DNA of 32,840 nt from a virus. Position numbers and translations under genes: made by a program. This document shows positions 4,981-26,114 of the stretch, piece by piece. The notes below the pieces were generated by a model that did not search any database, had not been told where the DNA came from, and saw nothing but the letters and a program-made list of their open reading frames with translations. The stretch's first letter is position 1. Every line of letters begins with the position of its first letter. The stretch lies in UHGV virus genome UHGV-0259093; one strand, written 5' to 3'.

Positions 4981-8671
<3,691 letters not shown>

Positions 8672-9295
8672 CTACTTCATTTTCCATTCTTGGTTTGCTT
8701 GGTTTACCTGTCCTAGTAAACTCATAAATTCATCTCCCGGATAATAAGACTGATAGACACTATTACTTGCAATAGTACGTGTCTGTACGTCTAACTTCTG
8801 GAATATACTGTTTATATTTACTGTAAGTTCGGTTGTTTTATTATTGGGATCTGCTACTGCTTGGCAATAGTCAATATACCCGCTAAACATTAACATTTGA
8901 TAAATCGGTGTGGTTGTATAGGGATCAAGGATAACCATAATGATATTTACTTTAGCCTTGAATAGACCACCCGATAGAGCTAACATCTGTACACTATTAT
9001 CAATATTACTTACTTTGAAGTTGATAGAGTTATTGCTAATTCCCTTTTCTTCATTAAATGCTGGTAGTGAGTCCTGAATAATATCAGGGAATGATTGATA
9101 GACTACGCTATTAAGTTCTAAGTTTTTAAATGCATCAGTCCAGTGAATACCATTTTGATTACGGGGGAATACATCAAAACACGTTACATGCTGCCCTAAA
9201 CTCATTACTTCTTGAATGGTTAATTCTGTCCTATTACCACCTCTTGTAAGATTCCAGTACTTAAGTAGATTTGGATTAGTTAGTAAATCATCCAT
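8672..9295 (-). CDS. minor tail protein (lambda gpL position)
   Basis: 207-aa ORF; assignment by synteny only. Confidence 0.45.
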   Translation of the reverse strand: MDDLLTNPNLLKYWNLTRGGNRTELTIQEVMSLGQHVTCFDVFPRNQNGIHWTDAFKNLELNSVVYQSFPDIIQDSLPAFNEEKGISNNSINFKVSNIDNSVQMLALSGGLFKAKVNIIMVILDPYTTTPIYQMLMFSGYIDYCQAVADPNNKTTELTVNINSIFQKLDVQTRTIASNSVYQSYYPGDEFMSLLGQVNQANQEWKMK

Positions 9296-9296
9296 A

Positions 9297-9848
9297 TTAT
9301 AGATTCTCCGTTGCCTTTAGTTTTAGTGTTACTACATTCGTGATAGGCGTCTTATATTCGTTATCTGCATCTAATACGGCGGTAAGTTGAATATTATTGT
9401 ACTTAATGATTTCCCCTGCCTGTACGCTGGAACGTAGAGCCGGGAATACAGTAATAGAAGTATTAGTACGGTCGATAATGCGATAGATTTTAGTATGATT
9501 GGTGAATTGAACCATATCACCCACACCTAGTAACTGTGAGTTAGTTGTGATTTGGATTGATCCCGCTGCTACTGCGTTTGTACTGGATACTGCACCAGTT
9601 TGTGTACCTGTGTATTTTGATAGGTGTCCTAAGTCCATAGGGAAAGGCTTACCTAGTGAATATGTAGAAATGAAATTATCCACTTGGCGACGGTCTTTAA
9701 TGTTATATGTTAGTGTAAATTCAACTTCATAGTATTGAATACCCGTTGCACGTTGTAACTTTTGCCCCGTCCATGATTGGTGTTCATACATTGGCTGTAC
9801 GCTATTTAAAGTAACACCAGATACTTTAATTGCATTTGTAAAATTCAT
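9297..9848 (-). CDS. minor or distal tail protein (lambda gpM position)
   Basis: 183-aa ORF immediately downstream of the tape measure gene; synteny only. Confidence 0.45.
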   Translation of the reverse strand: MNFTNAIKVSGVTLNSVQPMYEHQSWTGQKLQRATGIQYYEVEFTLTYNIKDRRQVDNFISTYSLGKPFPMDLGHLSKYTGTQTGAVSSTNAVAAGSIQITTNSQLLGVGDMVQFTNHTKIYRIIDRTNTSITVFPALRSSVQAGEIIKYNNIQLTAVLDADNEYKTPITNVVTLKLKATENL

Positions 9849-9885
9849 ATATATTTCCTCTTGGGTTGTATGATGTATTTATATA

Positions 9886-9910
9886 AGAAAAGGGGCATAA
9901 CGCCCCCTTT
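9886..9910 (-). terminator. hairpin, possible attenuator or terminator after the tape measure gene
   Basis: aaaggggc ataa cgcccccttt hairpin. Shares the 16-nt string ataagaaaaggggcat with the endolysin terminator at 3463-3478. T-richness after the stem on the minus strand is modest. Confidence 0.35.
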
Positions 9911-9913
9911 CAA

Positions 9914-12097
9914 TTATGAGTTTCTTCTCTGAGAATCACGTACAGCCTGTACAACACTGTTTTGATATTTCTTTAGATTAGCCTGAAATTGTTTATCATC
10001 GCTCATGCCGTAGTTATACATAGGGGCATTTACGATAATATCGCCACCACCAGTACCGTTACCGTTGCTATCTTGATTATCTAAGAATTGAGTTAGTTTC
10101 TTATTAGCCTCTGGTTGTACTACACGTTCACCCGCTTTAAGTACAAATGACTTATCATTATAGCTTGCAGGAAGGTTATCTACGCCGCCGTGGAATTGAC
10201 CGCTATTAGATGCACCTTTTGCTGTACTGATAATACTCATACCCATACCTGCAATCTGTGCATATGCCGCTAGGTTCTGTGGGAAACCTAAAGATAGTGC
10301 ACTTGCTAACGCCTCTTGAATCTTCATAATGGTCATAGAGATGGTAATACCCTTCTGTACTGCATAGAACGCCTGAGCCGCCCCGGATGACTCACCAAAA
10401 GCCGCCGCCATACCATCACCGATCTGTGTCATTGCAGATTCAGAAGTAGATAGAATATTCATGTACTCTTGATTCTGAATCTGTAGTGCTTTAGTTGCGT
10501 ACTGTGCTGTAATTGCCGCCTTACGCTTTTCAAAAGATTCTTTATCCTGAATTAGCAATTCATTCTGTTTTAGAATTGCATCTCTTTCTTCTTGCATACG
10601 TTCCATATCGTAAGAAGTGGTATCAAGTCCTAAAGATTGATCAAGTTGATTTCCTAAGTAATTAGACTGTTGTTTATTTAGATCACCGTTCGCAAGTAAA
10701 GCATTTTGATCTAGTGTCTGTTGGTTAGGGTTACTATAACCAATCATCTGATTGATCATATTAAGTCTACCCGCCGCCCCTGCTGTTAGTTGGTCGTTTA
10801 GTAATTCCTGTAGTTTTACATCAGATAAGCCTAATGTTTTTGCACTCTTCTTAATTACGTTTACGATTTCGTTTTGCTGGCGTTTGAATTCTGCTAACTG
10901 ACGTTCATTAGTACCTTCAGTCTGATCTACAAGTACCTTATCTAATGCGGCCTGTGCTGCAATGCGTTGTTGTGCTGCTTTAGCCTGTTCGCTGGCTGCT
11001 GCTTTAGCCGCTGCCGCTGCTGCCTTAGCTGCTTTCTCTGCGGCCTTTTTAGGATCTTCTAATGGTGTCCATGCTGCGTTACCACGTGGGTTAGTTACTG
11101 TGGCTTTACCAGTTGGTAAATTACTATTCAGTACAGGCATGTTATTTTTATTCTTTTCGGCGTTAGCTTGATCAATTAATGCAAGTGCATCATCACCTAA
11201 GCCAAAACCTAAGCCCATTGATTTTAGAAGTTTACTAAAGCTGGCTGCTCGGTTCATTTGAGTTTCCCAAAATCCCTTTGCTGTATCACCTTCTTTCATT
11301 GCTGCAATGAATTCATTAGTAGCAGATACAATAGGGTTTAATGTTTCAATCAAATATTCCTGGCCTGTATCCAGTAGAGTACGTAGATTATTATCGAATT
11401 CTTCATAGGCTTTAGCTTGATCTTCACTAACTGCTACAGTTTGTTTTTTAATATTCGCCATTGCTTCAGAGTAACTATTAAATTCACTGAGTACTCCAGT
11501 TAGACGGGAACCATTACTAGCTACTGCTTCCATTGCATAGGTTATTTCTGCTTGTGTTTTTCCTGCATCTCTCATTTTATAATAGAGATCTACCATTGCT
11601 TCAATACCGCCATTGGCTTTACCTACATATTTTGTAAAGTCATTAACGTTTAAACCCATCTCTTTTACGACGGTAATAAACTCACCTGTACCCGCTGCGT
11701 ACCCCTCACCCATTTTATCGGATGTATCTTGCGAAATATCCGCTAGACCTTCTGCATCTATACCAGTTTGTCTAAATGCCTTTTGTAGTTTCTGTAGGTC
11801 GGTTACTGATATACCAGATCGTGTAGAAAGTTGATTTAATTCACGTACTAACCCGTTAACCTTAAGTACAAGTGCACCTACTGCCGTTCCTGCACCTAGT
11901 GCTACTGCGGAAATACCACCGATACCCGTTGAAAGTTTCCCGAATACTTGAGAAGTATTAGATGCAAAACCACCTAATGATCCCCCGGCTTTTTTACCGA
12001 ATGCATCTACTCTTTGTTCTGCCTGTTGTAGTGCTTTAGATAGTCCTGTACTGTCACCATCTATTTCTACTTTAATTTTTTCGTTCTTCCTTGCCAT
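9914..12097 (-). CDS. tail tape measure protein
   Basis: 727 aa, largely alpha-helical and Ala/Gln/Lys-rich with poly-Ala stretch (AAEKAAKAAAAAAKAAASEQAKAAQQ). Located directly after the frameshifted chaperone pair. Confidence 0.85.
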   Translation of the reverse strand: MARKNEKIKVEIDGDSTGLSKALQQAEQRVDAFGKKAGGSLGGFASNTSQVFGKLSTGIGGISAVALGAGTAVGALVLKVNGLVRELNQLSTRSGISVTDLQKLQKAFRQTGIDAEGLADISQDTSDKMGEGYAAGTGEFITVVKEMGLNVNDFTKYVGKANGGIEAMVDLYYKMRDAGKTQAEITYAMEAVASNGSRLTGVLSEFNSYSEAMANIKKQTVAVSEDQAKAYEEFDNNLRTLLDTGQEYLIETLNPIVSATNEFIAAMKEGDTAKGFWETQMNRAASFSKLLKSMGLGFGLGDDALALIDQANAEKNKNNMPVLNSNLPTGKATVTNPRGNAAWTPLEDPKKAAEKAAKAAAAAAKAAASEQAKAAQQRIAAQAALDKVLVDQTEGTNERQLAEFKRQQNEIVNVIKKSAKTLGLSDVKLQELLNDQLTAGAAGRLNMINQMIGYSNPNQQTLDQNALLANGDLNKQQSNYLGNQLDQSLGLDTTSYDMERMQEERDAILKQNELLIQDKESFEKRKAAITAQYATKALQIQNQEYMNILSTSESAMTQIGDGMAAAFGESSGAAQAFYAVQKGITISMTIMKIQEALASALSLGFPQNLAAYAQIAGMGMSIISTAKGASNSGQFHGGVDNLPASYNDKSFVLKAGERVVQPEANKKLTQFLDNQDSNGNGTGGGDIIVNAPMYNYGMSDDKQFQANLKKYQNSVVQAVRDSQRRNS

Positions 12098-12432
12098 TAC
12101 TTTTTACCCTTTTTAATAGCCATGTTTTTAATCATCTCCCCAATAGAATTAATCTCCTGAGCTTGATTATTAATTTTTTGTTGTTCCCTTTTTAATCTAC
12201 GCTCTTTTGTAGTTAGAGAATCATCGAGCATATCCATGAAATCAAAATCACTGTACTTAAGGGTTTTCTTATAATTGGCTGGTAAGTTTGGATTGTACAT
12301 AGCCATTAGATAACAAGTATGAGTATGATAAAGCATATCCATTTTTTCTTGCTTACTACTCATACAAGATTTATAAACTTCTAATGCTTGGAATAAATCA
12401 GGATCTATATTCTCCATTTCGTCAATACTCAT
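12097..12432 (-). CDS. T portion of the tail assembly chaperone G-T frameshift product
   Basis: The reading frame of this ORF stays open upstream of its ATG through to the slippery site at 12486-12492 (no stop in any of the 20 codons I checked). It is in the -1 frame relative to the 12483-12782 ORF. Confidence 0.55.
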   Translation of the reverse strand: MSIDEMENIDPDLFQALEVYKSCMSSKQEKMDMLYHTHTCYLMAMYNPNLPANYKKTLKYSDFDFMDMLDDSLTTKERRLKREQQKINNQAQEINSIGEMIKNMAIKKGKK

Positions 12433-12482
12433 ACCCCTAGTACAGATAAGATCTAGATATGTGCGTAGTTCGTGATCCTCAA

Positions 12483-12782
12483 TTATTTTTTTTCGATTTC
12501 GTCCACTACATCAGATTCTTTATATAGATCCATAATAGCCATATATATTTTTGCTACTACTTCAGAATCGAGTACATTTAGGTTTACACGACCTTCAATA
12601 TCTTCAGTACTGAAAATTGGATCACCGATTTCATCACAAGTACATACGGATACGCATTCCATAGGATCGGTTAGTTTAGAAATATCTTTTGCACGTGCAC
12701 GGTGAATATATAGATCAATACCTTCAATACTATAAGTGTGTTTCTTTGGTGCTAGTTTGTTTAATACATCCTGTAGGTTCAT
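12483..12782 (-). CDS. tail assembly chaperone (lambda gpG equivalent)
   Basis: 99-aa acidic protein directly upstream of the tape measure gene, ending in GAA AAA AAA TAA. Confidence 0.6.
   Translation of the reverse strand: MNLQDVLNKLAPKKHTYSIEGIDLYIHRARAKDISKLTDPMECVSVCTCDEIGDPIFSTEDIEGRVNLNVLDSEVVAKIYMAIMDLYKESDVVDEIEKK
12486..12492 (-). other. programmed -1 ribosomal frameshift slippery heptamer A_AAA_AAA
   Basis: Minus-strand mRNA reads G AAA AAA A TAA (plus strand 12483-12494 ttattttttttc). Heptamer is in X_XXY_YYZ register with the G frame and sits immediately before its stop. Confidence 0.5.
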
Positions 12783-12844
12783 TATAATTTCCTTTTATTA
12801 TTGTAAAAAAATAGGGCGATAGAAAATACTATCACCCTTATTTA

Positions 12845-13303
12845 TTATTCTTTTGGTAGTAAACCAGATTCGATAGCTGCACCATCAACCGCTAGATTAA
12901 ACGATTTGGTAACTACTGCGTCTTTATCACCAGCGATAGTTGTAGAACTAACGAAACATGTATAGACAACATAGCAGCCTGTAGTTTCAGTAGCGTCTGT
13001 GTAGTAACTTAGACGAATCTGACAACGCTTCTGCTCATCTGCTAGTGTTTCTAGCAATTGGTGTGTCTCGTTATCTGGAAGATAGTTAACTTGTAGTTCA
13101 ATATCTGGAATTGATTTAGTACCTAATAGTTTACGGTTATAAGCACTATTGAATGTGACTACATCGATTACAACTGATTCAAAACCTGAAGTAGTGAAAG
13201 AGGCAACTTCTGGTACTTCTTTAAAGTCAGTAGCTAGGGTAGTACCCGCACTTGTACCTACTTCAACTTTTAAATTAGCACCTGAAAAGATATCCATTGG
13301 CAT
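12845..13303 (-). CDS. putative major tail tube protein
   Basis: 152 aa, positioned immediately upstream of the chaperone pair as in lambda V-G-GT-H order. About one third identical to the N-terminal ~150 aa of the 13370-16396 fiber. Confidence 0.45.
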   Translation of the reverse strand: MPMDIFSGANLKVEVGTSAGTTLATDFKEVPEVASFTTSGFESVVIDVVTFNSAYNRKLLGTKSIPDIELQVNYLPDNETHQLLETLADEQKRCQIRLSYYTDATETTGCYVVYTCFVSSTTIAGDKDAVVTKSFNLAVDGAAIESGLLPKE

Positions 13304-13369
13304 TTTTATATTTCCTTATATAAGTTTATTTCTAGTAGGGCAAGAATCCTTTCTTACCCTACGTTGTAT

Positions 13370-16300
13370 TTATTTATTCATTAGTTGTTGTACTAATGCT
13401 TTTAGTTCATCAATTTGTGATTGTTGATAATCATTATCTTTCTTCAATGATTGAACCGATCCCATTAAATCCATAACAATTGGGTTAACATCGATAGACG
13501 GTCTATCGCGTGTTAGTTGTTCTACTATGTTTCCTTCTTCATCAAGTACTTCATCATAGATTTCTGGATTGTGTTTCACATACTGAGGTGTGTTTATTTC
13601 TGACTCTTCGGCAATAATCCCAAAACGCTGGCGTTTTTGTTCATCATCTTTATAGACAAAATTAACCATTTTTTGAGATAAAATTCTTTCTAACGCTTCG
13701 TCGGTTTTTGCTTCTACAATATCTTCTTTATAGTCTCTACCGGATGTACCTTGTAAAGCCAATGCACCACCACCTAGCGGTAGTGAGATCCAATATTGTG
13801 GGCTTCCTGCTGCTGTGTAGGTCTGGAATCCGTAGTTGCCTACAGTTTCTGAAAAACCAGCACGGATACGTACAACACCATTTGATGCAAGATTACATGT
13901 ATAAGAGGCTGAACCGTTGGAACGTAGCATAATTGCATCAGTACCAGCACTTGAACCACCACACGTAACACGGTTGCTAGTTACATCGAATGTACCAGCA
14001 CATGTAGTATTACCTAATGCAGTAATAACACCGCCGAAATTCATGGTATTAGTAGTACGTGAATAGTTGAATAGAGCTACACCACCTGTATTATCACGGT
14101 TTAAACGGAATGATCCACCATCTGCTACAAATAGATATGTACTATCTGAGGAATCCGATTCTACAAATGATAAACATGGGTTTGTACTGGTAATAGTTAA
14201 TGGGTTTGACGCTGCGTTAGAGAATTTAGCAGTACCATTATTAGTTACGTTGATACCCGGCGTTGTAATTAGACTACTGAAATAAGAGCCACCATTACTA
14301 AAGGTCATTAAGCCCTGTCCAACGGTTGCGGAACCTTCACCAACATAGATACGTGCATCATAATCGTTTCCAGTACCGCTACTGTGAAAATCAATAAATG
14401 ATCCCGCCTTTGTTGTTGTACTGCCTAATTCAAAACCTACTGTACTTGTATTTAATGTACCAACCTGTAAGCCACCAGTTTTAATAGTTTGTGACCCGTT
14501 CCATTGGTTACCACCATCTAGCGTTGGGATAGTTACACCCAATTGATCATTCGTTAGGTATTCTTTCCATGCAGTCCACCCCGCCGTACCAGCTAATACA
14601 CGTCTCCATTTACGATTACTTGCGTAGGATGTATATTCTTGTACACAAGCCTGTGCGGTTCCTGCACCAGTTGGATATACGTATAAACCGCCAGCCTCGG
14701 CAATTGGGTATTTGTTAGCAGGGGTTGCACTTGCGTTTAGTGTTTGGTAATAGAATCCAGATTGAGCCGCACCCAATGTATCTAGGTTAACACTAGCGGC
14801 TAGTGCCGTCTGACTACGGTACATTGCCTGTAAATTATTACGGGCTGCATCTACACTATTTGCACCAGTACCGCCCTCTGTAATTGCAAGTTTATTCGTT
14901 AGTGTTAGTACACCATTGAAATGTAAACTTGCAGCCATAATATTCATTGAACCACTACCAGCCGCCGTAGTAGAACCGCCTGTAGATTGAATACGAGAAT
15001 CATAATCTACGGTACTACCGGAACTGTGAAAATCAATATAAGATGTACTAGCCGCTACTGTAGAGCCAATTTCAATACCGCCACCTGTGGAAGAATTAGC
15101 CGCAAATCTATTTTGATTGCCGTTAAATTGTTGGTTACCAGACCATGTATTTTCTGTACTTAATAGTGGGATTGTTGCACCAGAAGTACCAGTATTAATT
15201 ACTGCTGAAGTACCTAAGCCTAAGTTTGTACGTGCGTTAGCTACGTTAGTTAAATCAGATAGGTTACTTGCCTTAATAAGATACTTACCATCCATTGCAG
15301 TACTTGTAACGATACCTAAGTTTACTTGTGCCTGTGCAACGGTACTAGCACCTGTGCCACCGTTCGCCACTGGTACGATATCGAAAGTACCCGCCGCTTT
15401 AACGCCTAAGTTTGTACGTGCTTCTGCTGCCGTCTTAGCACCAGTACCGCCATTTGCTACCGTTAGAGCTTGACCTAAAGTTAATGATCCTGCACTTGCT
15501 ACGCCTAAAGTAGAAGTAGTGGTTTTAATACTTTCACCAGTGATTGCACCAGTTGCCTCTACATCTGCACCCGTAATTTTATTTGCAGAAATTAAGCTAT
15601 TGACTTTGACATTACCGGAAAATGTTTTATTCCCTGCAATAGTCTGATCACCAGTTAGAGCTACATACTTTGTATCACCTAGATTAGTTGTTAAAATACG
15701 TTGCCATGCGGTAGTCTGGTTTTTTGCATAGATTGCAAGTGAACCTGTTTTAGTCATTGCGATAGAACTAAAAGTAGTACCATCAATTAGACCTACACCC
15801 ATCATATCAGCACTGGCTGGATTACCCACTTGTGACGCTGGGATCTTGATAAAGCTGTTACCTAGTGGGCGTTCTGGTTGATACTGTGGTACATCACCAC
15901 CATTACTACCTACACCATAGGAACCTTCTACTAATGCTGCACTTGCTAACGCCGTACCATCACGTGTAATAACGTCTGTAGGTACAAAAGAATAGGTTTT
16001 CATTACTACGGTATCTTTATCACCAGATACGTTAGCTGATTGGATTTGACCATTAACCATTGAATAATTGATTAAACCATCTTCAATATTGTAGCGTAGT
16101 GTTAATTGAAATTCTTTTTGACTCTCGGTTGCAGCATCTAAGAAAGCATGTGTTTCATCATCTGGAATATAGTTAACAGTAATATCAATATTATCTACGT
16201 TTTGTTCTGCTGCTAGTTTAGATGAGTACTCACTATCGTATGTTTCAAGTGTTTGTATCTCACTTTCGATTCCAAATGACGGCATCGCTGCCAATTCGTT

Positions 16301-16396
16301 TATTTCTTCGTTGCCTGCATTATCGGGAATACGGTTAGCAGTATCATTATTATAGAATAACTTAAAGTTATTACCTGTAAAAATATCATTACTCAT
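13370..16396 (-). CDS. long side tail fiber with phage tail fiber repeats and C-terminal intramolecular chaperone (peptidase S74-type) domain
   Basis: Repeated ANGGTGAKTAAEARTNLG / ANGGTGASTVAQAQVNLG motifs. C-terminus GRDYKEDIVEAKTDEALERILSQKMVNFVYKDDEQKRQRFGIIAEE matches the auto-cleaving chaperone domain of endosialidase / L-shaped fibers. RBS aagga upstream. Confidence 0.8.
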   Translation of the reverse strand: MSNDIFTGNNFKLFYNNDTANRIPDNAGNEEINELAAMPSFGIESEIQTLETYDSEYSSKLAAEQNVDNIDITVNYIPDDETHAFLDAATESQKEFQLTLRYNIEDGLINYSMVNGQIQSANVSGDKDTVVMKTYSFVPTDVITRDGTALASAALVEGSYGVGSNGGDVPQYQPERPLGNSFIKIPASQVGNPASADMMGVGLIDGTTFSSIAMTKTGSLAIYAKNQTTAWQRILTTNLGDTKYVALTGDQTIAGNKTFSGNVKVNSLISANKITGADVEATGAITGESIKTTTSTLGVASAGSLTLGQALTVANGGTGAKTAAEARTNLGVKAAGTFDIVPVANGGTGASTVAQAQVNLGIVTSTAMDGKYLIKASNLSDLTNVANARTNLGLGTSAVINTGTSGATIPLLSTENTWSGNQQFNGNQNRFAANSSTGGGIEIGSTVAASTSYIDFHSSGSTVDYDSRIQSTGGSTTAAGSGSMNIMAASLHFNGVLTLTNKLAITEGGTGANSVDAARNNLQAMYRSQTALAASVNLDTLGAAQSGFYYQTLNASATPANKYPIAEAGGLYVYPTGAGTAQACVQEYTSYASNRKWRRVLAGTAGWTAWKEYLTNDQLGVTIPTLDGGNQWNGSQTIKTGGLQVGTLNTSTVGFELGSTTTKAGSFIDFHSSGTGNDYDARIYVGEGSATVGQGLMTFSNGGSYFSSLITTPGINVTNNGTAKFSNAASNPLTITSTNPCLSFVESDSSDSTYLFVADGGSFRLNRDNTGGVALFNYSRTTNTMNFGGVITALGNTTCAGTFDVTSNRVTCGGSSAGTDAIMLRSNGSASYTCNLASNGVVRIRAGFSETVGNYGFQTYTAAGSPQYWISLPLGGGALALQGTSGRDYKEDIVEAKTDEALERILSQKMVNFVYKDDEQKRQRFGIIAEESEINTPQYVKHNPEIYDEVLDEEGNIVEQLTRDRPSIDVNPIVMDLMGSVQSLKKDNDYQQSQIDELKALVQQLMNK

Positions 16397-16410
16397 TTCT
16401 CTATATTTCC

Positions 16411-16815
16411 TTATTGTTTTTGAGTTGCTACAATATTTATAGAGAATGATAAAGATTGATAACCAGTAGTCGGATCTGTAACTACTTCCCCATTGTCGAA
16501 TGCATATGATAATAGTGTTACTGCATTATCTTTAAATTCTTTAATTGTATTTGTTTTGAAATAATCCATAATTTCCCCGAAAATATCGGCGGGAAGTTTT
16601 ACTGATGGTTCGGGTACTAACAGGAATTGAAAATCAAATGTTCCCGTTTGTCTTTGAGTACCGAAATTTGTTAGGTTATAACTCTGGTTTACACTAACTA
16701 GAATGAATAGATCCTTACCTGCCTGAATATTCATAGCCTTTCGGATTGGTTGAATATTATTCAAACTCGTAATTATCGTGGTTTGTACGTCTTTTAACAG
16801 TGCCATAATTACCAC
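16411..16815 (-). CDS. head-tail connector or tail completion protein (by position)
   Basis: 134-aa ORF between the capsid and tail fiber genes. No motif recognised. Confidence 0.4.
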   Translation of the reverse strand: MVIMALLKDVQTTIITSLNNIQPIRKAMNIQAGKDLFILVSVNQSYNLTNFGTQRQTGTFDFQFLLVPEPSVKLPADIFGEIMDYFKTNTIKEFKDNAVTLLSYAFDNGEVVTDPTTGYQSLSFSINIVATQKQ

Positions 16816-17018
16816 CCATAGTTATTAATGGATGTTAGGCGTATATAGATTTCACTGATACCGCTTAAATCATCGTATACATTACTTACTGTATAACTAA
16901 CACCGCCGATACCTAGAATAGTACCTGCTGTAATATTATGCGTTTTAATATCTGCTGACTTTGCAGAAATAAACGTTTCTACACTTTCTACTAATCCTTC
17001 AGTACCGCTATCTAACAC
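16809..17018 (-). CDS. small hypothetical head-tail protein; track start is a GTG
   Basis: 69-aa ORF. The codon at 17016-17018 is GTG on the minus strand, so the true start is uncertain. Confidence 0.3.
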   Translation of the reverse strand: MLDSGTEGLVESVETFISAKSADIKTHNITAGTILGIGGVSYTVSNVYDDLSGISEIYIRLTSINNYGW

Positions 17019-17137
17019 AACGGGCGTACATCTACTATACCCGTAAATGACGCCCCGTTAATTGTGATAGGTTCACCAAAGGCATTTAAGAAAGTAGAAT
17101 CAATTTGATTACTTGTAAAATGCCTCATGGGTAATCC

Positions 17138-18988
17138 TTATGCTTGTAGTTTAATTTGTACGAATGCTTCCTCGTGACCGATTGCAGTGTCGAGATATTG
17201 GAAACTACGAATAGCGATAGTTTGAGCCGCACGATAAGTAGTATCGTCAAAATCTAGTTCTTGGCCTTCATTCCAGTTAGCGAAAATTAGCTCTGAGAAG
17301 TCACCGATTAGAATGGTATCTTGTGCAACGAAAGTAGATTCAATTACACGTACTTCATCGTTTAGCCACATGTCATAGCGATGACCTGCTACCATTGCTA
17401 CGGCTGCGGTATTGCTGAGAACTGCGGTTTGACGTAGTTTTGCTAGCATTGCTGGATGCACGATAGCTACACAACGATTAACATCAACGTTTGCTACACC
17501 TAGTGCCTCAATTGCTTTTTGTACGTCTGCTTCGGTTACTGTACCCGCTGCTGCTGTTTCTTGTACTGGTACTGCTAGTGCAATTTTATCAAATACTGCT
17601 TTTTCTAGACCGTTAGAGCAATGGCGTAGTAGTTCATCAGTTACATAACGTTCAGTTGCTGCATTGCTTAGTAGCATTGCTTTAGTAACTTTAATACCTG
17701 CTGCAAACATAGTAGGCTTTAGAGTGATCTTGTCGAAAGATTCAAAACCATCTACTACGGATTCATCTTCACCGTAGAATTTCGCTACAGGGTTCATACC
17801 TTTAGCACGTGGGATAGAGAAATTACCACGACCTGCTAGGCCACCAAATACAGTAACAGGTAGTTGACCTAGTACAGTACGTGCTAGTAGTTCACGTAGA
17901 TAAGAGTCGGCTAGTTGTTCTTTAACTAGACCTGCTGCGGTAACAGTAGAGGTAGTATCTGAAGTAGAACGTACCATTGCATTTAGATCAGCACTATAAC
18001 CACGTGAACCTTTATCAAAAGTTGCTAGTTGGTTATCTTCACCTTTAAGACTACGTAGACCTTCAGCGATTAGAGATTTATTTTCCATTTGTTTGATATC
18101 CTTATCAATTGATTTATCTTTATTTAGTAGTGAGCGTTTAAATTCATCTACGCTTACACCGTTTTTAATTGCTTCTTCGGTACTAATCCCTAGTACGTTA
18201 GAAATAGATTGAAGTTCGCGTACACGCTTATCTTCTACATCTTTATTTAGTTTTTCTTGAATATTGATTTCAGTAGTTGCAATAGAACGTTCTTCTACTA
18301 GTTCCACTTCTTGAAGTGGTTCGGATACTTCTTCTTTTACTTCTTCTTCTTTCACATCTTCAGCGACTACTACAACTTCTTCAGTAACTTCTAATTCTGG
18401 TTGTACTTCTACTTCCTGAATTTCTTCTACGGCTTCTACTTGTGGTAATTCTTGTTTTTGTTCTTCCATGATTGGTTGATCCTCTAAAGTGATTTCTTCA
18501 TTTCTATTTAGTGATCTTCCAATTCCTACTGTATTGTCTGCGGGGGTACTTACTGAACTTAATTCATATGGTTCCCATCGAGTTACATATAAATTATCAC
18601 CTTCAAAGTAATAATCTTTAATGTTGTAACCTACTGATACTTTCGGGCGAATGCCTTCTAAGATCATACCGAAAATAGTTGTAGCACTTCCTAAAGCACT
18701 AAAGCGTACTGTTGCACGACATACTTTATCCATATCTACGCGGGCGTTTTCTACTATTCCAACTTGACGCATTGCATCATGTTCTACTAGAACTGGTGCA
18801 CCATCATTAAGACGGTTTAAATCTACGTTCTCTGGATTGCATAGAAGGATCTCATTAAATAGAGATCCGTTGATTTCGCGAGTTACTGGAATTTCTGAGG
18901 CAAAAGATAATTCGACGGTACGATCATTTTCATCAATAGCATTACTGATCTGTGTTAGATTGATCGCCCTCTTCTGGTTCAATTCCAT
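17138..18988 (-). CDS. prohead protease - acidic scaffold-like linker - HK97-fold major capsid protein fusion
   Basis: N-terminal ~170 aa resemble HK97-type prohead protease (ELSFASEIPVTREI...VLVEHD). Highly acidic coiled region (EEQKQELPQVEAVEEIQEVEVQPELEVTEEVVVVAEDVKEEEVKEEV). C-terminal ~300 aa are capsid-like. Sits between portal and connector genes. Confidence 0.75.
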   Translation of the reverse strand: MELNQKRAINLTQISNAIDENDRTVELSFASEIPVTREINGSLFNEILLCNPENVDLNRLNDGAPVLVEHDAMRQVGIVENARVDMDKVCRATVRFSALGSATTIFGMILEGIRPKVSVGYNIKDYYFEGDNLYVTRWEPYELSSVSTPADNTVGIGRSLNRNEEITLEDQPIMEEQKQELPQVEAVEEIQEVEVQPELEVTEEVVVVAEDVKEEEVKEEVSEPLQEVELVEERSIATTEINIQEKLNKDVEDKRVRELQSISNVLGISTEEAIKNGVSVDEFKRSLLNKDKSIDKDIKQMENKSLIAEGLRSLKGEDNQLATFDKGSRGYSADLNAMVRSTSDTTSTVTAAGLVKEQLADSYLRELLARTVLGQLPVTVFGGLAGRGNFSIPRAKGMNPVAKFYGEDESVVDGFESFDKITLKPTMFAAGIKVTKAMLLSNAATERYVTDELLRHCSNGLEKAVFDKIALAVPVQETAAAGTVTEADVQKAIEALGVANVDVNRCVAIVHPAMLAKLRQTAVLSNTAAVAMVAGHRYDMWLNDEVRVIESTFVAQDTILIGDFSELIFANWNEGQELDFDDTTYRAAQTIAIRSFQYLDTAIGHEEAFVQIKLQA

Positions 18989-20435
18989 TTTCCATTTTTT
19001 CCTTTTGTATTTCTTCCATGACTACCGCCGGGTCATAACCCATTTCACTAATAACCATTGCTTTACTCTTAAGTCCTGAATCAATTGCAAGTACCTCAGT
19101 TTGAAGGTCTTTATATGGATCAAGTGAGATTTGGCGAGTTGGTACATATTGGGCATGAGTTAGATTATTGAAGTCACTAAAACTTAAATTGCTTAATGCA
19201 CTATTATTTATCATTGCTGCTTTCAACCACGTAACATAAAGAGGCTTAAGTACAGAAACGATTAACGCATTAGTACGAGTTTTAAATGTTGATTGTTGTA
19301 GTTTGTCCGTTAGTTTTGCTGCACTAAATGAAGCATTACTAGTATCAGAGGTTAGGGATTGTTTTGTAATATCAAGCCCCATTGCAATCATCATTAATTG
19401 GTTATCTACGAATTCACTAATACCATCTGTAGTTTGTGTAGGGTTAACAGTTTTAATATCCTGTCCTGCCTGTAGTTCTACGATAGCTGCCGGATTTAGA
19501 TAATCTTGTTCATAGTAAGAAACATCATCACCTTTTAGTAATTCGATTTCATCACTATCTGGATTAGTAATAAATGCCATTGCTGAAGCTGCTACTTTAC
19601 GAGAAGTAATAGCCGCAACCATGAATTCTTCTAATTCTTTTAATTTATCAGTACCTGCATGTACATCTGGAATACCGCGTTGCTGTGTTGGGTAGTCCTG
19701 CTGGAATAGGTGTAGAATCTCTTCTGCTGGTACTCGTTCACGTTCACCTAAAAGGTAGTTGTACATGATAGGGTTATAGCGAGTAATCCAATATGCAACC
19801 GGGCGATTAGTATCAATATCAAATTCAATACCATTACTGATATAGTTACCTGAAGGTAGAATCTGGTTTTCATATGTACTAATTCGCATTGAGTCGATGA
19901 TCTCTACCTGTGGCATACCATCACGCGTTTGGTGAATGCGGATAAAGCAATCTCCATCGATACTACGAGTACGTTCTACAAGGCGTTGGAATGTACTGAT
20001 ATCAAGCGTACCGCAACGGGAAAAGGCTTTAGGATCTTCGGCCCATGCATAAAAAGCATCTTCTAACTGTTTATTCACCTGTTGGTTTACTTTGTCATCC
20101 TGTGAACTATGCGAACAAGGGCGAATATATAGACCATCTGCACCAGTAACACCCGCTGAGTTAGTCGCAACGTACTTTTTAACGATACCGTTTTTAATAG
20201 ATAGTTCACGGCTTGCCGCTACCATCACTGGTAAAGTACGATTAATAATTGCGTTAATGTTCCCGGCTTGATTTCCTGCGGTGAATCCGAATGAAATAAC
20301 AGGACTACTTGAACCTAGATTTAGGGAAGTCATAGCACGTTTCATTGGGTTGTTTTTCATTAATGCAGTTTTATGTATTTGTACTTTTGGTTTTTCTGGT
20401 TCCTGTACTTTTTTATTTTTATTCCATCCGAACAT
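18942..20435 (-). CDS. portal protein
   Basis: 497-aa ORF immediately downstream of the large terminase and upstream of the protease-capsid gene. Size and synteny typical of lambda-family portals. Confidence 0.75.
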   Translation of the reverse strand: MFGWNKNKKVQEPEKPKVQIHKTALMKNNPMKRAMTSLNLGSSSPVISFGFTAGNQAGNINAIINRTLPVMVAASRELSIKNGIVKKYVATNSAGVTGADGLYIRPCSHSSQDDKVNQQVNKQLEDAFYAWAEDPKAFSRCGTLDISTFQRLVERTRSIDGDCFIRIHQTRDGMPQVEIIDSMRISTYENQILPSGNYISNGIEFDIDTNRPVAYWITRYNPIMYNYLLGERERVPAEEILHLFQQDYPTQQRGIPDVHAGTDKLKELEEFMVAAITSRKVAASAMAFITNPDSDEIELLKGDDVSYYEQDYLNPAAIVELQAGQDIKTVNPTQTTDGISEFVDNQLMMIAMGLDITKQSLTSDTSNASFSAAKLTDKLQQSTFKTRTNALIVSVLKPLYVTWLKAAMINNSALSNLSFSDFNNLTHAQYVPTRQISLDPYKDLQTEVLAIDSGLKSKAMVISEMGYDPAVVMEEIQKEKMENGIEPEEGDQSNTDQ

Positions 20436-20962
20436 TAACGCCCCCTATGAAATGTTGTAATAGATTTAATAGGGCTACCTGCGTTTAGTCCTTTCATATC
20501 TGAAATTAAATCGTTTGCCCTTTTAACATAGGTAGAACGTAGGCGTAGAAGTACTTCGCTTGATTCATAAGTTAGGGCTTTATTTTGTATTGATTGACTT
20601 AGTACACCACCACCTTTAATACGGTCTAGTGTAATTTGGTCAATATCTTTTATGATCTGAATTAGATCATTATATTCTGAGGCTTTACTAGTTGGATCAG
20701 TTACTTCAAATTGTTGTACACCGTATGCTTTAGGACTATCAATAATTGCAGTCCAGATACCCACGCCCCACGTATTAGTATCAATATCAGGGAATGGGTA
20801 AACATAGGAAGTTTTAACACCGTTAGGATCTATCAAATCGATATTAGTTCCTTCTGGATAGTTGAAAGTAATTGTTTCACCTTTGATAATATCGCCTTTT
20901 AAATCAACTTTGCGAACAATTGCCATTTGTTTTATTTCCTTATTTAAAGAATCCTCCACCAC
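20435..20962 (-). CDS. hypothetical head protein (occupies the gpW head-tail joining position between terminase and portal)
   Basis: 175-aa ORF; synteny only. Confidence 0.4.
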   Translation of the reverse strand: MVEDSLNKEIKQMAIVRKVDLKGDIIKGETITFNYPEGTNIDLIDPNGVKTSYVYPFPDIDTNTWGVGIWTAIIDSPKAYGVQQFEVTDPTSKASEYNDLIQIIKDIDQITLDRIKGGGVLSQSIQNKALTYESSEVLLRLRSTYVKRANDLISDMKGLNAGSPIKSITTFHRGR

Positions 20963-22868
20963 GTCTAGACGGACGTACTACACGACCTGTTTTTACTGGT
21001 GCTGGTTCTTCTTTATTTACTTCTTTATTTAGTCCTTTCTCTTTTTGTTTGGCGTTGAATTCGCGTAGTTTGCGGAATGGCTGATTACCTAATTTAGATA
21101 GATACCAGTGGAAACATATTAAAGCGTAGTTAAGACAATCAAGCGTTTCATTCCTTGCTGAACTAATTTTCTTAACCCATACCCACGCCCCAGCTTTAAT
21201 AACTCTCTTCTCACTTGATACCTGAATAAAGTAATCATCTGGTACTGAATGGCTGAAGTGTATTTGTACTTCACTACTATTACCACTATCCGATACTGCA
21301 CGGTTTAATAGTTGTCTAATATTACTTTTCCCTAAGTTTACGTTTAGGTTTATTAGACTATGACCACCAGCCGTAGAGCCTTTAAAGAGTGGGTTAGTAT
21401 TTGAAGTACCGCCCTTGATTGGTTTAAAGATTGTCGATGCACTACAATAGCGATATACCGTACTGGTTGCGTTACCGTTCGAACTATCTACAAAACCTGC
21501 AAGTACTTTAAGTGGTTTACCGGATACGGTTTTAAAGTTAGTTTGTGAAAATGCTGTTAGCTTATTCCATGCGGGAGCCTCTATTTTAGTACAGTCAATG
21601 CTATGAATACTGCGATGATCGAGTACATAAAGATTCTTTTCACTTATTCCTAACGTTGTTACTTCAAGGCGGTCTAACTGTTGGTCTACACCTAGTACGA
21701 TTCCTTGACAGTCATCCGGCACGGTATCTATATCTATTGAACTATCACGTAGGTTTTCAAGTAATACTAAATCATGATCGGTATTCTCTTTATCAATATA
21801 AGGAAGTCCTAAGACGTTATTGTAGAATGAGGCTAGATCAAATGTATAATGTGCTTCGGCAAAATCCTGTACTATTGATTTGATCGAGTTAATCGGGGAG
21901 TATAAACGGCTAATATGATACCCCATGATATCCGTTACTTCTGGTACTGTAGCTATCCATTCACCCTTACGTACCATTCTTACACGTTCGGCTTCTGTGA
22001 TTACATTATTACACTTAGGACATTGTAGTTTTGCTGTCTCTGCATCTGGAATGCGACGACGACCACCATCAATAATTTTCCAGTCGAATTTAACATTTTC
22101 AAATACTAATTCATGTGCATGATCACAATGTGGGCAAGGTACGTAGAACTTCTGTTTATTACTTTGCTCGTACTGCTGAGTGATTAAATCATTCTCATCA
22201 AGTGGTGTAGAACAAACCATAATAAGAGGGTTGCTAAAAGCCTTTGTACGCTGTTCTGCTAGCTTTAGTGGGTTCCCTTCATCACCATCTGCATCTACGT
22301 TAGATATTTCGTCAAGAAAGATACGGGGGGCTGTCAAGCCTCGCAAATTCGCACTACTACCCAATGTTAGGAAGTACGTAAAAGTACCGTCTAAGTTTTG
22401 TTGTGTCTTATCATTATTAGTATAGTTTTTATCATTCTTATTACTGACTAGATTTTTAAGTACTGCACATGCTTCGATTACTGATTGCCATTTACCAGTA
22501 CGAAACTTACTAGTAGTGCTGGCTGTTGCACCTGCGAAAATTAGATTGCTTGGATCATTTGCGAGGAAGTAGTACATACTATTCTGTAAAACTGTTGTTT
22601 TGAGAAGTTGTGCACTGCTCATCAAAACTATTTTTCTAATTCTTGGATTAGTAATGTCATTTATGGGCTTGTGCTGAAAGGAAAATAACTTTACGCGTTG
22701 TCCTTGTAGTTCCCCATCCGGGAATACTAAATTATTCTCTACCCATTCCGCTGGTAGTTGTCGCTTCGGAGGTAGGATCGACTTCGCCGCCCTCGTTAGT
22801 ACCTTCATCATCTTCTGGTAGTTGTTCATCCGTGTATGTTCCTTCATATTCATAGCTACCAATTTCAT
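20940..22868 (-). CDS. terminase large subunit, GpA family
   Basis: 642 aa. PCPHCDHAHELVF, GVDQQLDRLEVTTLG and ARNETLDCLNYALI parallel lambda gpA ACPHCGEEQYLKF, GIDSQLDRYEMRVWG and RRNEALDCFVYALA. Several in-frame Met near the N-terminus, so the true start may be later than 22868. Confidence 0.9.
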   Translation of the reverse strand: MKLVAMNMKEHTRMNNYQKMMKVLTRAAKSILPPKRQLPAEWVENNLVFPDGELQGQRVKLFSFQHKPINDITNPRIRKIVLMSSAQLLKTTVLQNSMYYFLANDPSNLIFAGATASTTSKFRTGKWQSVIEACAVLKNLVSNKNDKNYTNNDKTQQNLDGTFTYFLTLGSSANLRGLTAPRIFLDEISNVDADGDEGNPLKLAEQRTKAFSNPLIMVCSTPLDENDLITQQYEQSNKQKFYVPCPHCDHAHELVFENVKFDWKIIDGGRRRIPDAETAKLQCPKCNNVITEAERVRMVRKGEWIATVPEVTDIMGYHISRLYSPINSIKSIVQDFAEAHYTFDLASFYNNVLGLPYIDKENTDHDLVLLENLRDSSIDIDTVPDDCQGIVLGVDQQLDRLEVTTLGISEKNLYVLDHRSIHSIDCTKIEAPAWNKLTAFSQTNFKTVSGKPLKVLAGFVDSSNGNATSTVYRYCSASTIFKPIKGGTSNTNPLFKGSTAGGHSLINLNVNLGKSNIRQLLNRAVSDSGNSSEVQIHFSHSVPDDYFIQVSSEKRVIKAGAWVWVKKISSARNETLDCLNYALICFHWYLSKLGNQPFRKLREFNAKQKEKGLNKEVNKEEPAPVKTGRVVRPSRRGGGFFK

Positions 22869-23463
22869 TTAATTGATCATCTATTTTTTCCTGTAGTTTG
22901 ATTTTTAATTCTAATGCGTCTGCTGATTCGAATAATTCAACATAACTTGACGCGGGAATACTTCTTAATACTTGGCGTAGTTGGTAGAAGTATTGGGATA
23001 AAGTTTGCTGTACTACTGCTACTGGTATTAGCTCGCCGGATTGCTGACGTAATTCCATTTCTTTAATATCAGCTTCTGCTTCTAACTTACGTAGTGTTGC
23101 TTTTTGTATTTGGCCTTTTGTATCACCGCTTCTTAGTGGTTCGATTACGTTTGCAAGTAACCAATCGTCAACTAATTTCTTAGGCCAGGTGATATCTAAA
23201 CCTTTACCAGACCATATACGGCTAACAGTAGAATGCTCTACGCCGAAACGATCCGCGATTTCTTGCCACGTGTAGCGGGTTCCATCGTCTTTAATTTTTG
23301 CCATTTTGTTTAGTCCTTGTTTAGTACAATAAACCTGTACTTTCCTTTTATTTCGTTTTGTTTGTTTTCGATTAGAAATCCCACGAATTTTAAATACAAT
23401 TCGCGGCGAAAACTCGATTTTTTTGTTCTCAATTAGAGAACCTAAAGTTAAAACTTCACTCAC
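22732..23463 (-). CDS. terminase small subunit with HTH; likely true start at ATG 23304 (MAKIKDD...)
   Basis: YTWQEIADRFGVEHSTVSRIW helix-turn-helix, acidic C-terminus, directly upstream of the large terminase. The track start at 23463 is a GTG. aagga RBS precedes the internal ATG. Confidence 0.65.
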   Translation of the reverse strand: MSEVLTLGSLIENKKIEFSPRIVFKIRGISNRKQTKRNKRKVQVYCTKQGLNKMAKIKDDGTRYTWQEIADRFGVEHSTVSRIWSGKGLDITWPKKLVDDWLLANVIEPLRSGDTKGQIQKATLRKLEAEADIKEMELRQQSGELIPVAVVQQTLSQYFYQLRQVLRSIPASSYVELFESADALELKIKLQEKIDDQLNEIGSYEYEGTYTDEQLPEDDEGTNEGGEVDPTSEATTTSGMGRE

Positions 23464-25388: not shown

Positions 25389-26114
25389 TTATTTCCTTAA
25401 TAACTTTTTTAATTCCTCAACTGTCTTCATTTCTTTTCCAATATGAATCATTGCATGACAGTTTGCACATAAAGGTATAAGATCTTCAATTGGGTCAATC
25501 TTATAGCGTTTACCAATAGTATGTAGTGGCACTATATGATGAACATGAATATAATTTTTTCCGTGACTTCCATACACTTCTTCAAAATTAAAACCACAGA
25601 CACCACAACTCAAACCATGTTTATCGATACATTCTTTTCTAGCCTTTGGATCTCTCTCATAGTACGTAGCAATCCTTTGATGCTTTTCACCTTCATAGTA
25701 TTCACTTTCTATTTCAGGTGTGAATGAATAGTAATCTTCATCGGTGGCATACCAATCTCCATCTTTTTTAGTAAGATATTTTCGTACTATTTTCTTTTCA
25801 AAATGTTTAATCCTAGCAGCACCATTTTCAGTTGTTTTCTCATGCCTAGTCTGGCTAAAGGTGAAAAGACTATACCCTTCATGTAAAATTTTATCTATGT
25901 GTTCGATAGATTGTGTATAACCATTTTTTTTGTGTCCATTTACATTTTCACGCCAACTGCTAGCCAAGATTAAAACTTTCTTACCATCATCTGATCTAAG
26001 ATCTTCCCAAGCTCCAAAAATTATTTTTTTGTTGATCTCATCAATAAATGACCAACTCCAGTTATCATTTTTACATGTAGCACCCAAAGAACGCATGAAC
26101 TCTGTTCGGGACAT
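25389..26114 (-). CDS. HNH-family endonuclease of restriction type (COG3183-like) with an uncharacterised N-terminal domain
   Basis: C-terminus ERDPKARKECIDKHGLSCGVCGF...IHVHHIVPL...DLIPLCANCHAMIH carries the Cys pair and His/Asn-type HNH motif of predicted HNH restriction endonucleases. Confidence 0.75.
   Translation of the reverse strand: MSRTEFMRSLGATCKNDNWSWSFIDEINKKIIFGAWEDLRSDDGKKVLILASSWRENVNGHKKNGYTQSIEHIDKILHEGYSLFTFSQTRHEKTTENGAARIKHFEKKIVRKYLTKKDGDWYATDEDYYSFTPEIESEYYEGEKHQRIATYYERDPKARKECIDKHGLSCGVCGFNFEEVYGSHGKNYIHVHHIVPLHTIGKRYKIDPIEDLIPLCANCHAMIHIGKEMKTVEELKKLLRK

Follow-up and report, generated by a model that had tools for sequence, protein, structure and literature searches.

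A siphophage side fibre that begins with a tail-tube-fold domain, and its proposed mounting on the tail

Only for a few phages is it established how side fibres are fixed on non-contractile tails, and the authors of the T5 study point out that side-fibre anchoring must differ in other siphophages (PMC10038345). The window analysed here, the whole 32,840-nucleotide stretch of the viral genome UHGV-0259093, raises this question through a 1008-aa fibre protein that resembles, in its N-terminal part, the 152-aa product of the adjacent gene. What could a fibre gain from such a domain? We propose, with a probability of about 0.55, that the 1008-aa product is a side fibre of modular build, whose N-domains form one dedicated hexameric tube ring tethering two trimeric fibres. 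The features of the locus are collected in Table 1.

Table 1 Features of the tail locus and domains of the fibre
Feature	Position	Strand	Basis or remark
Side fibre / receptor-binding protein, 1008 aa, tube-fold N-terminal anchor	13370..16396	-	
Fibre residues 1-150, tail-tube-fold domain, paralogue of the 152-aa protein	15947..16396	-	
Fibre residues 151-175, low-confidence linker, probably flexible	15872..15946	-	pLDDT <50 at residues 155-174
Fibre residues 176-240, small conserved all-beta domain, YGVG...GNSFIK...NP..D motif	15677..15871	-	
Fibre residues 241-884, shaft, GGTGA...ARxNLG-type fibre repeats and pyocin-knob-like region	13745..15676	-	
Fibre residues 885-1008, S74 intramolecular chaperone	13373..13744	-	Pfam PF13884, 8hqz_d
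12-bp stem-loop without U-tract	13335..13362	-	7 nt past fibre stop codon, upstream of tube gene
Major tail tube protein, 152 aa	12845..13303	-	Pfam Phage_tail_3, PHROG 158, gene position
Intrinsic-terminator-like hairpin, then T-run	12813..12838	-	directly 3' of tube gene
Head-tail joining gene, 106 aa in relatives	16809..17130	-	broken by 1-nt deletion in C-run 17022-17024
Tail terminator protein, 131 aa from MALLKD	16411..16806	-	ORF list start: GTG 16815
Two tail assembly chaperone genes, 99 aa and 111 aa	12097..12782	-	
Tape measure protein, 727 aa	9914..12097	-	PHROG 13674, 2e-77
Distal tail protein (Dit), 183 aa	9297..9848	-	PHROG 1302, 2.8e-17
Tail tip: hub N-domain protein (207 aa), 131-aa protein, J-like central fibre (1100 aa)	4981..9295	-	

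Both open reading frames lie on the minus strand where a previous sequence-only reading had placed them, and the end-to-end alignment that it described was recovered. BLASTP aligns residues 1-149 of the 152-aa protein with residues 1-155 of the fibre (47/157 identities, 30%; 53% positives; E=1e-20), and the alignment contains the two segment pairs quoted earlier, VNYIPDDETH/VNYLPDNETH and GDKDTVVMKTY/GDKDAVVTKSF. Judged from the sequences, this similarity is far beyond chance. Between 44 fibres and 42 tube proteins the mean identity is 27.5%, versus 72% within the tube proteins and 50% within the fibre N-domains. PHROG 158 'major tail protein' is matched by the fibre at 2.9e-25 and by the 152-aa protein at 5.6e-20. 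In the Pfam scan the fibre N-domain had no tube match at E<=0.01, its tube match being at the PHROG level only. Sites that both families conserve are concentrated at the N-terminus (DIF.G), in a loop (T[YF].S.Y..KL) and in the motifs VNY.PD and GDKD.VV.K. In T5, ring-to-ring contacts are made by the N-terminus and long loops of the tube protein (PMC10038345). The fibre N-domain is also acidic like the tube protein, with a pI in the window of 4.05 versus 4.45 (family means 4.18 versus 4.53). The PHROG 158 matches, the tube fold and the paralogy thus support the idea, already put forward from the sequence, that a module resembling a tube subunit anchors the fibre. Fibre residues ~1-150 have a true tail-tube fold, and we lean towards their derivation from the neighbouring 152-aa tube gene by duplication.

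The fibre is not a frameshift product of the tube gene: the two proteins share 30% identity, and their ORFs, separated by 66 nt, have individual starts and ribosome-binding sites. The two ribosome-binding regions are near-identical and, therefore, no translation signal indicates a low fibre copy number. A hairpin occupies an equivalent place in the fibre-to-tube spacer of 39/39 related loci folded, with stem sequences that differ.

We identify the 152-aa protein as the tail tube protein: it has the tail-tube beta-sandwich fold, reaches 27.5 bits against Pfam Phage_tail_3 (cut-off 24.2) and is followed directly by the tail chaperones and the tape measure. Its counterparts in related loci reaching far enough are 58-98% identical. 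We found no other tube candidate in the window. We regard the earlier alternative of a collar or decoration protein, with the real tube gene elsewhere, as very improbable. The 131-aa protein encoded just upstream of the tube-fold genes has a terminator fold, as in lambda gpU and RcGTA g8. It was identified by fold comparison only; neither a profile search of the PDB nor Pfam scanning of 25 homologues pointed to a terminator. The fibre N-domain itself was rejected as the terminator, a separate terminator-fold gene being present. The 99-aa chaperone matches PHROG 344 and, weakly, Pfam TAC_13, and the 111-aa chaperone is assigned from position only. Tail-tip genes were named from Pfam, PHROG and the PGAP names on a related E. 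coli prophage. Terminator, major tube protein, Dit and J-like central fibre are all present, and the fibre N-domain is therefore an extra tube-like component. No Ig-like collar protein was detected in Pfam scans of ten ORFs (8672 to 18988) or PHROG scans of thirty ORFs.

Behind its tube domain and linker, the fibre carries a small domain with five predicted strands (pLDDT about 62-74, in a structure model of modest overall confidence, mean pLDDT 68). It contains residues that are nearly invariant in 19 homologues, and the domain is also kept in a distant lineage. Fold searches gave no class for this domain; the tube domain dominated the matches. The fibre repeats and C-terminal S74 chaperone recognised in the sequence-only reading were both confirmed. 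Fibre-type matches cover residues 266-404, through the solved fibres 7z47_D (residues 266-369) and 9zd7_AE (residues 352-404), and the protein also matches PHROG tail fibre families. The fibre part is expected to be trimeric because of these fibre-family matches. The pyocin-knob-like stretch (residues 531-633) gives weak PDB matches to 6ct8/6cl6. At the C-terminus, PF13884 (S74) is matched at residues 887-933 with 29.9 bits (cut-off 22), and residues 866-998 match PDB chain 8hqz_d, 'L-shaped tail fiber assembly', with E=2.6e-44. Self-cleavage is predicted before Ser885. In the segment S885-G-R-D-Y-K890, Ser and Lys are five residues apart, a spacing equal to that of SDIKLK in homologues; from endosialidase work, S885 and K890 are the putative catalytic pair.

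A protein identical to the 1008-aa fibre occurs on 16 public contigs under the name 'pyocin knob domain-containing S74 family peptidase'. More generally, of 52 IMG/VR loci, the 40 with sequence extending far enough all have the gene order terminator, tube-domain fibre, tube protein, chaperones, tape measure, Dit, as does an E. coli chromosome. The phage is a temperate siphophage, here an enterobacterial prophage. The fibre N-domain is kept in all of the at least 120 homologues among the matches listed. A word-index search with the 166-aa N-domain gave a single match, and an exhaustive representative search gave 142 clusters, about 100 of which are proteins of 560-1563 aa beginning with the tube domain. 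Conservation covers the N-terminal ~240 aa, whereas relatives have exchanged fibre tips. The shaft (241-884) is mosaic, with a coverage that varies among homologues. The S74 chaperone ends 28 of 49 fibres, and small extra ORFs follow some of the others. In a distant lineage, the same locus encodes a shorter tube-domain protein and a separate fibre; this split fits an adaptor role of the tube-domain protein. Megablast of the locus gave no match among 50,697 phage records. Protein searches of cultured phages retrieved only Escherichia phage DCP80 and a few Vibrio tube proteins. DCP80, the sole cultured-phage record with a relative, looks like a chimeric assembly, and we found no paper on it.

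From these data, we infer the following mode of attachment. Six fibre N-domains would form a single hexameric ring of their own, which makes up a layer of the tube and stacks onto ordinary tube rings. As each fibre is fused to a ring subunit, the fibres would be covalently tethered to the tail, and six chains would give two fibre trimers. The flexible linker 151-175 may absorb the 6-to-3 mismatch and the small beta domain 176-240 may start the fibre trimer. The exchangeable shaft and tip would then bind the host surface. The S74 chaperone would drive trimer folding, then cut itself off before Ser885. A bolder version has slightly less than even odds. It holds that a siphophage fibre is itself a tube subunit, that its ring forms part of the DNA conduit, and that this is a widespread, undescribed mounting mode; the module would be a plug-in anchor with swappable fibre tips in Enterobacterales prophages.

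The position of such a ring was approached from the genes. Comparison of distance matrices over 15, then 31 loci, in which recombination blocks confound the correlations, gave r=0.82 between the fibre and Dit, 0.83 for the head-tail joining protein, 0.73 for the terminator and 0.70 for the tube protein. The correlations favour Dit over the terminator (bootstrap 99.9%) but are equally high for the head-tail joining protein, and they single out no partner. The fibre gene adjoins the terminator and tube genes, whereas the T5 p140 gene adjoins that of Dit. This location argues against the tail tip, an argument weakened by the fact that tandem duplication alone would explain it. Our tentative choice for the ring is the tail tip, adjacent to Dit, in the manner of T5 p140 and T4 gp54, though at somewhat under even odds. 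A ring under the terminator at the neck is a slightly weaker candidate. The remainder of our expectation goes to fibre-bearing subunits interspersed along the tube.

In this last arrangement, the tube-fold domain would compete with the 152-aa protein for incorporation at many points of the elongating tube, and fibres would decorate the tail along its length. Tubes mixing plain and C-terminally extended subunits are known, in SPP1 (gp17.1/gp17.1*) with a 3:1 ratio (PMC8718954) and in 936 phages (TpeX; PMC6669499), all with appendages far smaller than this fibre, and here both paralogues share contact-type motifs and similar ribosome-binding regions. However, the known mixed tubes arise by frameshifting of one gene and not from a diverged second gene. 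Moreover, the two paralogues are ~27% identical while each family is separately conserved (50%, 72%), which suggests specialised contacts, and the three chains of one trimer must insert close together, an awkward requirement for random insertion. We consider this arrangement unlikely. Still less probable, in our opinion, is that the tube-fold domain sits outside the DNA conduit, docking on the tail exterior, Dit or terminator, or serving as an assembly handle only. It draws weight from the other siphophage fibre anchors compared, T5 p132 (PMC10038345) and, in the 936 neck passage structure, a BppU-like N-domain, both wrapped around the tube and not built into it, and from the fact that ring formation by the fibre N-domain is a step that we infer.

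A reversal of roles, with the 1008-aa protein as the main tube former and the 152-aa protein as a minor or accessory collar or decoration protein, appears very improbable. The fold is the same and PHROG 158 fits the fibre slightly better, but only the 152-aa protein passes the Pfam tube cut-off. It also has a normal size, a normal place before chaperones and tape measure and the higher conservation within its family, and its gene is bracketed by the conserved upstream hairpin and the downstream terminator-like site. A tube made of the 1008-aa protein alone would bear two large fibres per ring. We retain the dedicated hexameric ring as the preferred reading.

If this reading is true, a fibre covalently held in a tube ring would be a third solution beside Ig-like collars and tail-tip attachment. 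Receptor engagement could then pass mechanically straight into the tube lattice, a direct physical path that bears on the open question of how the ejection signal travels along the siphophage tail. With ~240 conserved residues to which exchangeable tips are joined, the anchor lends itself to use as a scaffold for host-range retargeting. An unannotated tube domain is present in proteins whose only name is "S74 family peptidase" or "tail fiber domain-containing protein".

The closest analogue is found in T5, where a ring of the tube paralogue p140 carries the S74-type L-shaped fibres pb1 via the p132 collar (PMC10038345). In both systems, the tube-fold paralogue is distinct from the major tube protein. 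T5 uses three proteins held by non-covalent contacts, whereas here anchor and fibre are one chain. p140 is a fusion of two tube domains and trimerises into a pseudo-hexamer, while a single tube domain of about 150 aa is present here. In place of an Ig-like collar protein such as p132, which the Pfam and PHROG scans did not detect here, the present locus has a direct fusion of fibre and tube domain. Finally, the position of the p140 gene marks it as a baseplate component according to the T5 authors (PMC10038345), whereas the fibre gene here lies between the terminator and tube genes.

Outward C-terminal adhesion modules on a tube-fold domain are also seen, as here, in the lambda gpV Ig domain, SPP1 gp17.1* FN3 and the carbohydrate-binding module of lactococcal 936 TpeX (PMC8718954, PMC6669499). 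Those are major tube proteins or their frameshift extensions, with small monomeric domains. In contrast, the present fibre has its own ORF and is not a frameshift-extended tube protein of the gp17.1* or TpeX kind; its gene is separate, its tube domain is about 30% identical to the tube protein, and its fibre part comprises ~640 residues between the anchor and the predicted cleavage site, plus a predicted self-cleaving chaperone. T4 gp54/gp48 and Pa193 gp37 'baseplate tube' are tube-initiator paralogues as well, without a fibre and in sheath-bearing tails. Outside phages, extended ('evolved') Hcp proteins of type VI secretion are tube-subunit paralogues with a C-terminal toxin domain. They resemble the present case as paralogues whose C-terminal module is loaded through tube assembly, but their cargo is lumen-facing or secreted and is not a receptor-binding fibre. 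The lactococcal neck passage structure and TP901-1 BppU are accessory fibre-like adhesins that share the combination of a conserved N-terminal anchor and variable distal modules. In these, an Ig-like beta-sandwich serves as the anchor and encircles the tube as an 18-mer ring, whereas the anchor here is a tube-fold domain. A full-text search, limited to the papers it covered, returned no description of a fusion of a tube domain to a fibre. In our reading, the present side fibre is probably a direct part of the tube wall.

BLASTP aligns the entire 152-aa protein with residues 1-155 of the 1008-aa fibre (30% identity over 157 columns, E=1e-20), and both proteins match PHROG 158 "major tail protein". 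The paralogy proposed in the sequence-only reading is thus borne out. The S74 chaperone that it placed at the fibre C-terminus was also recovered: the Pfam PF13884 score exceeds the cut-off, and residues 866-998 match the solved chain 8hqz_d, "L-shaped tail fiber assembly" (E=2.6e-44). The middle of the fibre matches solved fibres and a pyocin knob. Public annotation labels the protein by its C-terminal features only. The leaders and ribosome-binding regions of the two paralogues are nearly alike (ATAAGGAAATATA..AATG). The duplication may have taken in upstream sequence, or both genes may be under the same translational constraint.

An AlphaFold2 model of fibre residues 1-250, built on 20 sequences, has a confident core, with pLDDT of 76-92 over most of residues 11-150. 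Values are low in loop 44-64, in the linker 155-174 and at the ends. Fold comparison of the fibre N-terminus listed 80alpha gp53 (13.3), Sf11 gp24 (12.4), the tube proteins of Roseophage R4C (12.2) and RcGTA (11.3), and the T5 "minor tail protein" 7qg9_I (298 aa; 11.9), which we take to be p140. A Foldseek search against predicted viral structures again returned major tail proteins. Judged from these matches, the modelled N-domain (residues ~1-150) is a tube-fold domain and not the Ig-like decoration domain that had been its possible alternative.

It had also been envisaged that the 152-aa protein is a collar or decoration protein, the true tube gene lying elsewhere. This is rejected because the protein scores 27.5 bits with Pfam Phage_tail_3 (curated cut-off 24.2), its gene directly precedes those of the chaperones and tape measure, its family is better conserved than the fibre N-domain (mean within-family identity 72% versus 50%), and no second tube candidate was found in the thirty ORFs scanned with PHROG, ten of them also with Pfam. 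The terminator protein is separate from the fibre. Since a terminator, a tube protein, a Dit and a central fibre are all present in the phage, the N-domain is an extra component and does not stand in for a missing one.

The window holds the whole, or most, of a temperate siphophage genome from Enterobacteriaceae; its G+C content is ~28-42% (1-kb windows). Proteins 100% identical to the fibre have been recorded in E. coli and Enterobacter ludwigii, and one E. coli chromosome carries a related prophage within yegD. The minus strand encodes every late gene; after the J-like central fibre come lysis genes, accessory genes and a serine integrase. Genes resembling GIY-YIG-type and HNH-type homing endonucleases are present inside the prophage. 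The head-tail joining gene is broken: CCC replaces the CCCC found at this site in viral contig L003 (98-99% identical) and in the more distant L007, and this 1-nt difference leaves, in place of one 106-aa ORF, a short N-terminal piece and a 69-aa ORF. The break is either a homopolymer sequencing error or the mark of a defective prophage. The tail chaperone ORFs (99 and 111 aa) lie 50 nt apart without overlap, and the overlapping G/GT frameshift arrangement usual for tail chaperones is not evident there.

Late genes of the window in transcription order, followed by other features
Feature	Coordinates	Strand
Small terminase	22732-23463	-
Large terminase	20940-22868	-
175-aa connector protein	20435-20962	-
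Portal	18942-20435	-
Protease-capsid fusion	17138-18988	-
Head-tail joining protein	16809-17130	-
131-aa protein (upstream of fibre)	16411-16806	-
1008-aa fibre	13370-16396	-
152-aa tube protein	12845-13303	-
Two tail chaperones	12097-12782	-
Tape measure	9914-12097	-
Dit	9297-9848	-
Hub N-domain protein	8672-9295	-
131-aa protein (between hub N-domain protein and J-like fibre)	8276-8671	-
J-like central fibre	4981-8283	-
CCC in head-tail joining gene	17022-17024	-
Fibre leader	16397-16418	-
Post-fibre stem-loop	13335-13362	-
Tube gene leader	13304-13325	-
Terminator-like hairpin	12813-12838	-
Gap between chaperone ORFs	12433-12482	
GIY-YIG-type gene	2539-2976	
HNH-type gene	25389-26114	

A 12-bp stem-loop that lacks a U-tract is located 7 nt past the fibre stop codon. 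Spacers from 39 related loci were folded, and each has a hairpin there, with stems that differ in sequence (GTAGGG.., GGGATAAA.., CGGGGTAAA.., CAGGGGA..). Different stems in the same place suggest selection for structure, and the element may act in RNA processing or stability, separating expression of the tube protein from that of the fibre. Directly 3' of the tube gene, a terminator-like hairpin is followed by ATTTTTTT. Structured RNA elements thus flank the tube gene on both sides, an arrangement to be expected of a major structural gene with high expression.

The N-domain is present in all 120 listed fibre homologues. When 1.84 billion representatives were searched exhaustively with a 166-aa N-domain query, 142 clusters matched. 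In ~100 of these the proteins are 560-1563 aa long and begin with the N-domain; stand-alone tube proteins of ~150 aa come next, at ~25-35% identity. In 40 of 52 related IMG/VR loci the genes run head-tail joining, terminator, fibre, tube protein, chaperones, tape measure, Dit, hub; in the remaining 12, the contig ends too early or the fibre or tube gene is interrupted. The first ~240 fibre residues, comprising the tube domain and a small beta domain that has the motif YGVG...GNSFIK...NP..D, are conserved, and the remainder is mosaic. An S74 domain ends 28 of 49 fibres and the others have different tips, some being followed, before the tube gene, by an extra small ORF of 75 or ~125-130 aa (L017, L022, L023, L024, L040, L052). 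From its position, we guess that the ~125-130-aa product could be an assembly factor that takes the place of the built-in chaperone. A conserved N-terminus with a mosaic remainder is what a conserved virion anchor with exchangeable receptor-binding parts would be expected to show.

In a distant lineage (the siphophage part of Escherichia phage DCP80, Buttiauxella gaviniae, Atlantibacter subterraneus), the same locus splits the function over two genes: a terminator-position gene is followed by those of a 468-699-aa protein that combines the tube domain with the second (small beta) domain, a separate 745-1081-aa fibre and the tube protein. A small ORF precedes the tube protein in the two chromosomal loci and is absent from DCP80. 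Among cultured-phage records, DCP80 (L001/L055, PQ671644.1) contains the only relative, siphophage and T4-like genes being mixed. Classified as a T4-like member of Straboviridae (141 kb), it carries in its first ~26 kb a window-related module of siphophage structural and lysis genes, then T4-like genes, including two rIIA copies in opposite orientation. The record looks chimeric or mis-assembled.

We think that the N-domain is built into the tube as a ring. In T5, ring-to-ring contacts involve mainly the N-terminus, long loops and sandwich loops (PMC10038345). The positions conserved in both the fibre N-domain and the tube protein families are at the N-terminus, the long loop (T[YF].S.Y..KL), VNY.PD and GDKD.VV.K, and the N-domain is no less acidic than the tube protein. 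Once incorporated, six chains would give two trimeric fibres, and the low-confidence linker 151-175 would span the mismatch in symmetry. The S74 domain would act in folding of the trimer and then release itself by cleavage before Ser885, a site predicted from the motif position. Interspersed incorporation along the tube and peripheral docking are possible alternatives to the ring. The location of the fibre gene between the terminator and tube genes hints at a ring at the neck, but tandem duplication alone would place it there; considerations of assembly, and what side fibres usually do, speak for the Dit end. A distance-matrix comparison over 31 loci, with r of 0.83 for the head-tail joining protein, 0.82 for Dit, 0.73 for the terminator and 0.70 for the tube protein, does not separate the two positions.

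In lactococcal 936 phages, a BppU-like Ig domain anchors the neck passage structure. The nearest precedent for a tube paralogue ring carrying side fibres is T5, where a single ring of p140 separates the last tube ring from Dit and the p132 collar around it holds three pb1 fibres; the authors of that work state that anchoring must be different in other siphophages (PMC10038345). Unlike in T5, anchor and fibre are here one polypeptide, and no collar protein was found. No account of a long fibre fused to a tube-fold domain turned up in full-text literature searches. Rings of tube paralogues, tube proteins with decorations and S74 fibres are each known; it is their combination that appears to be new.
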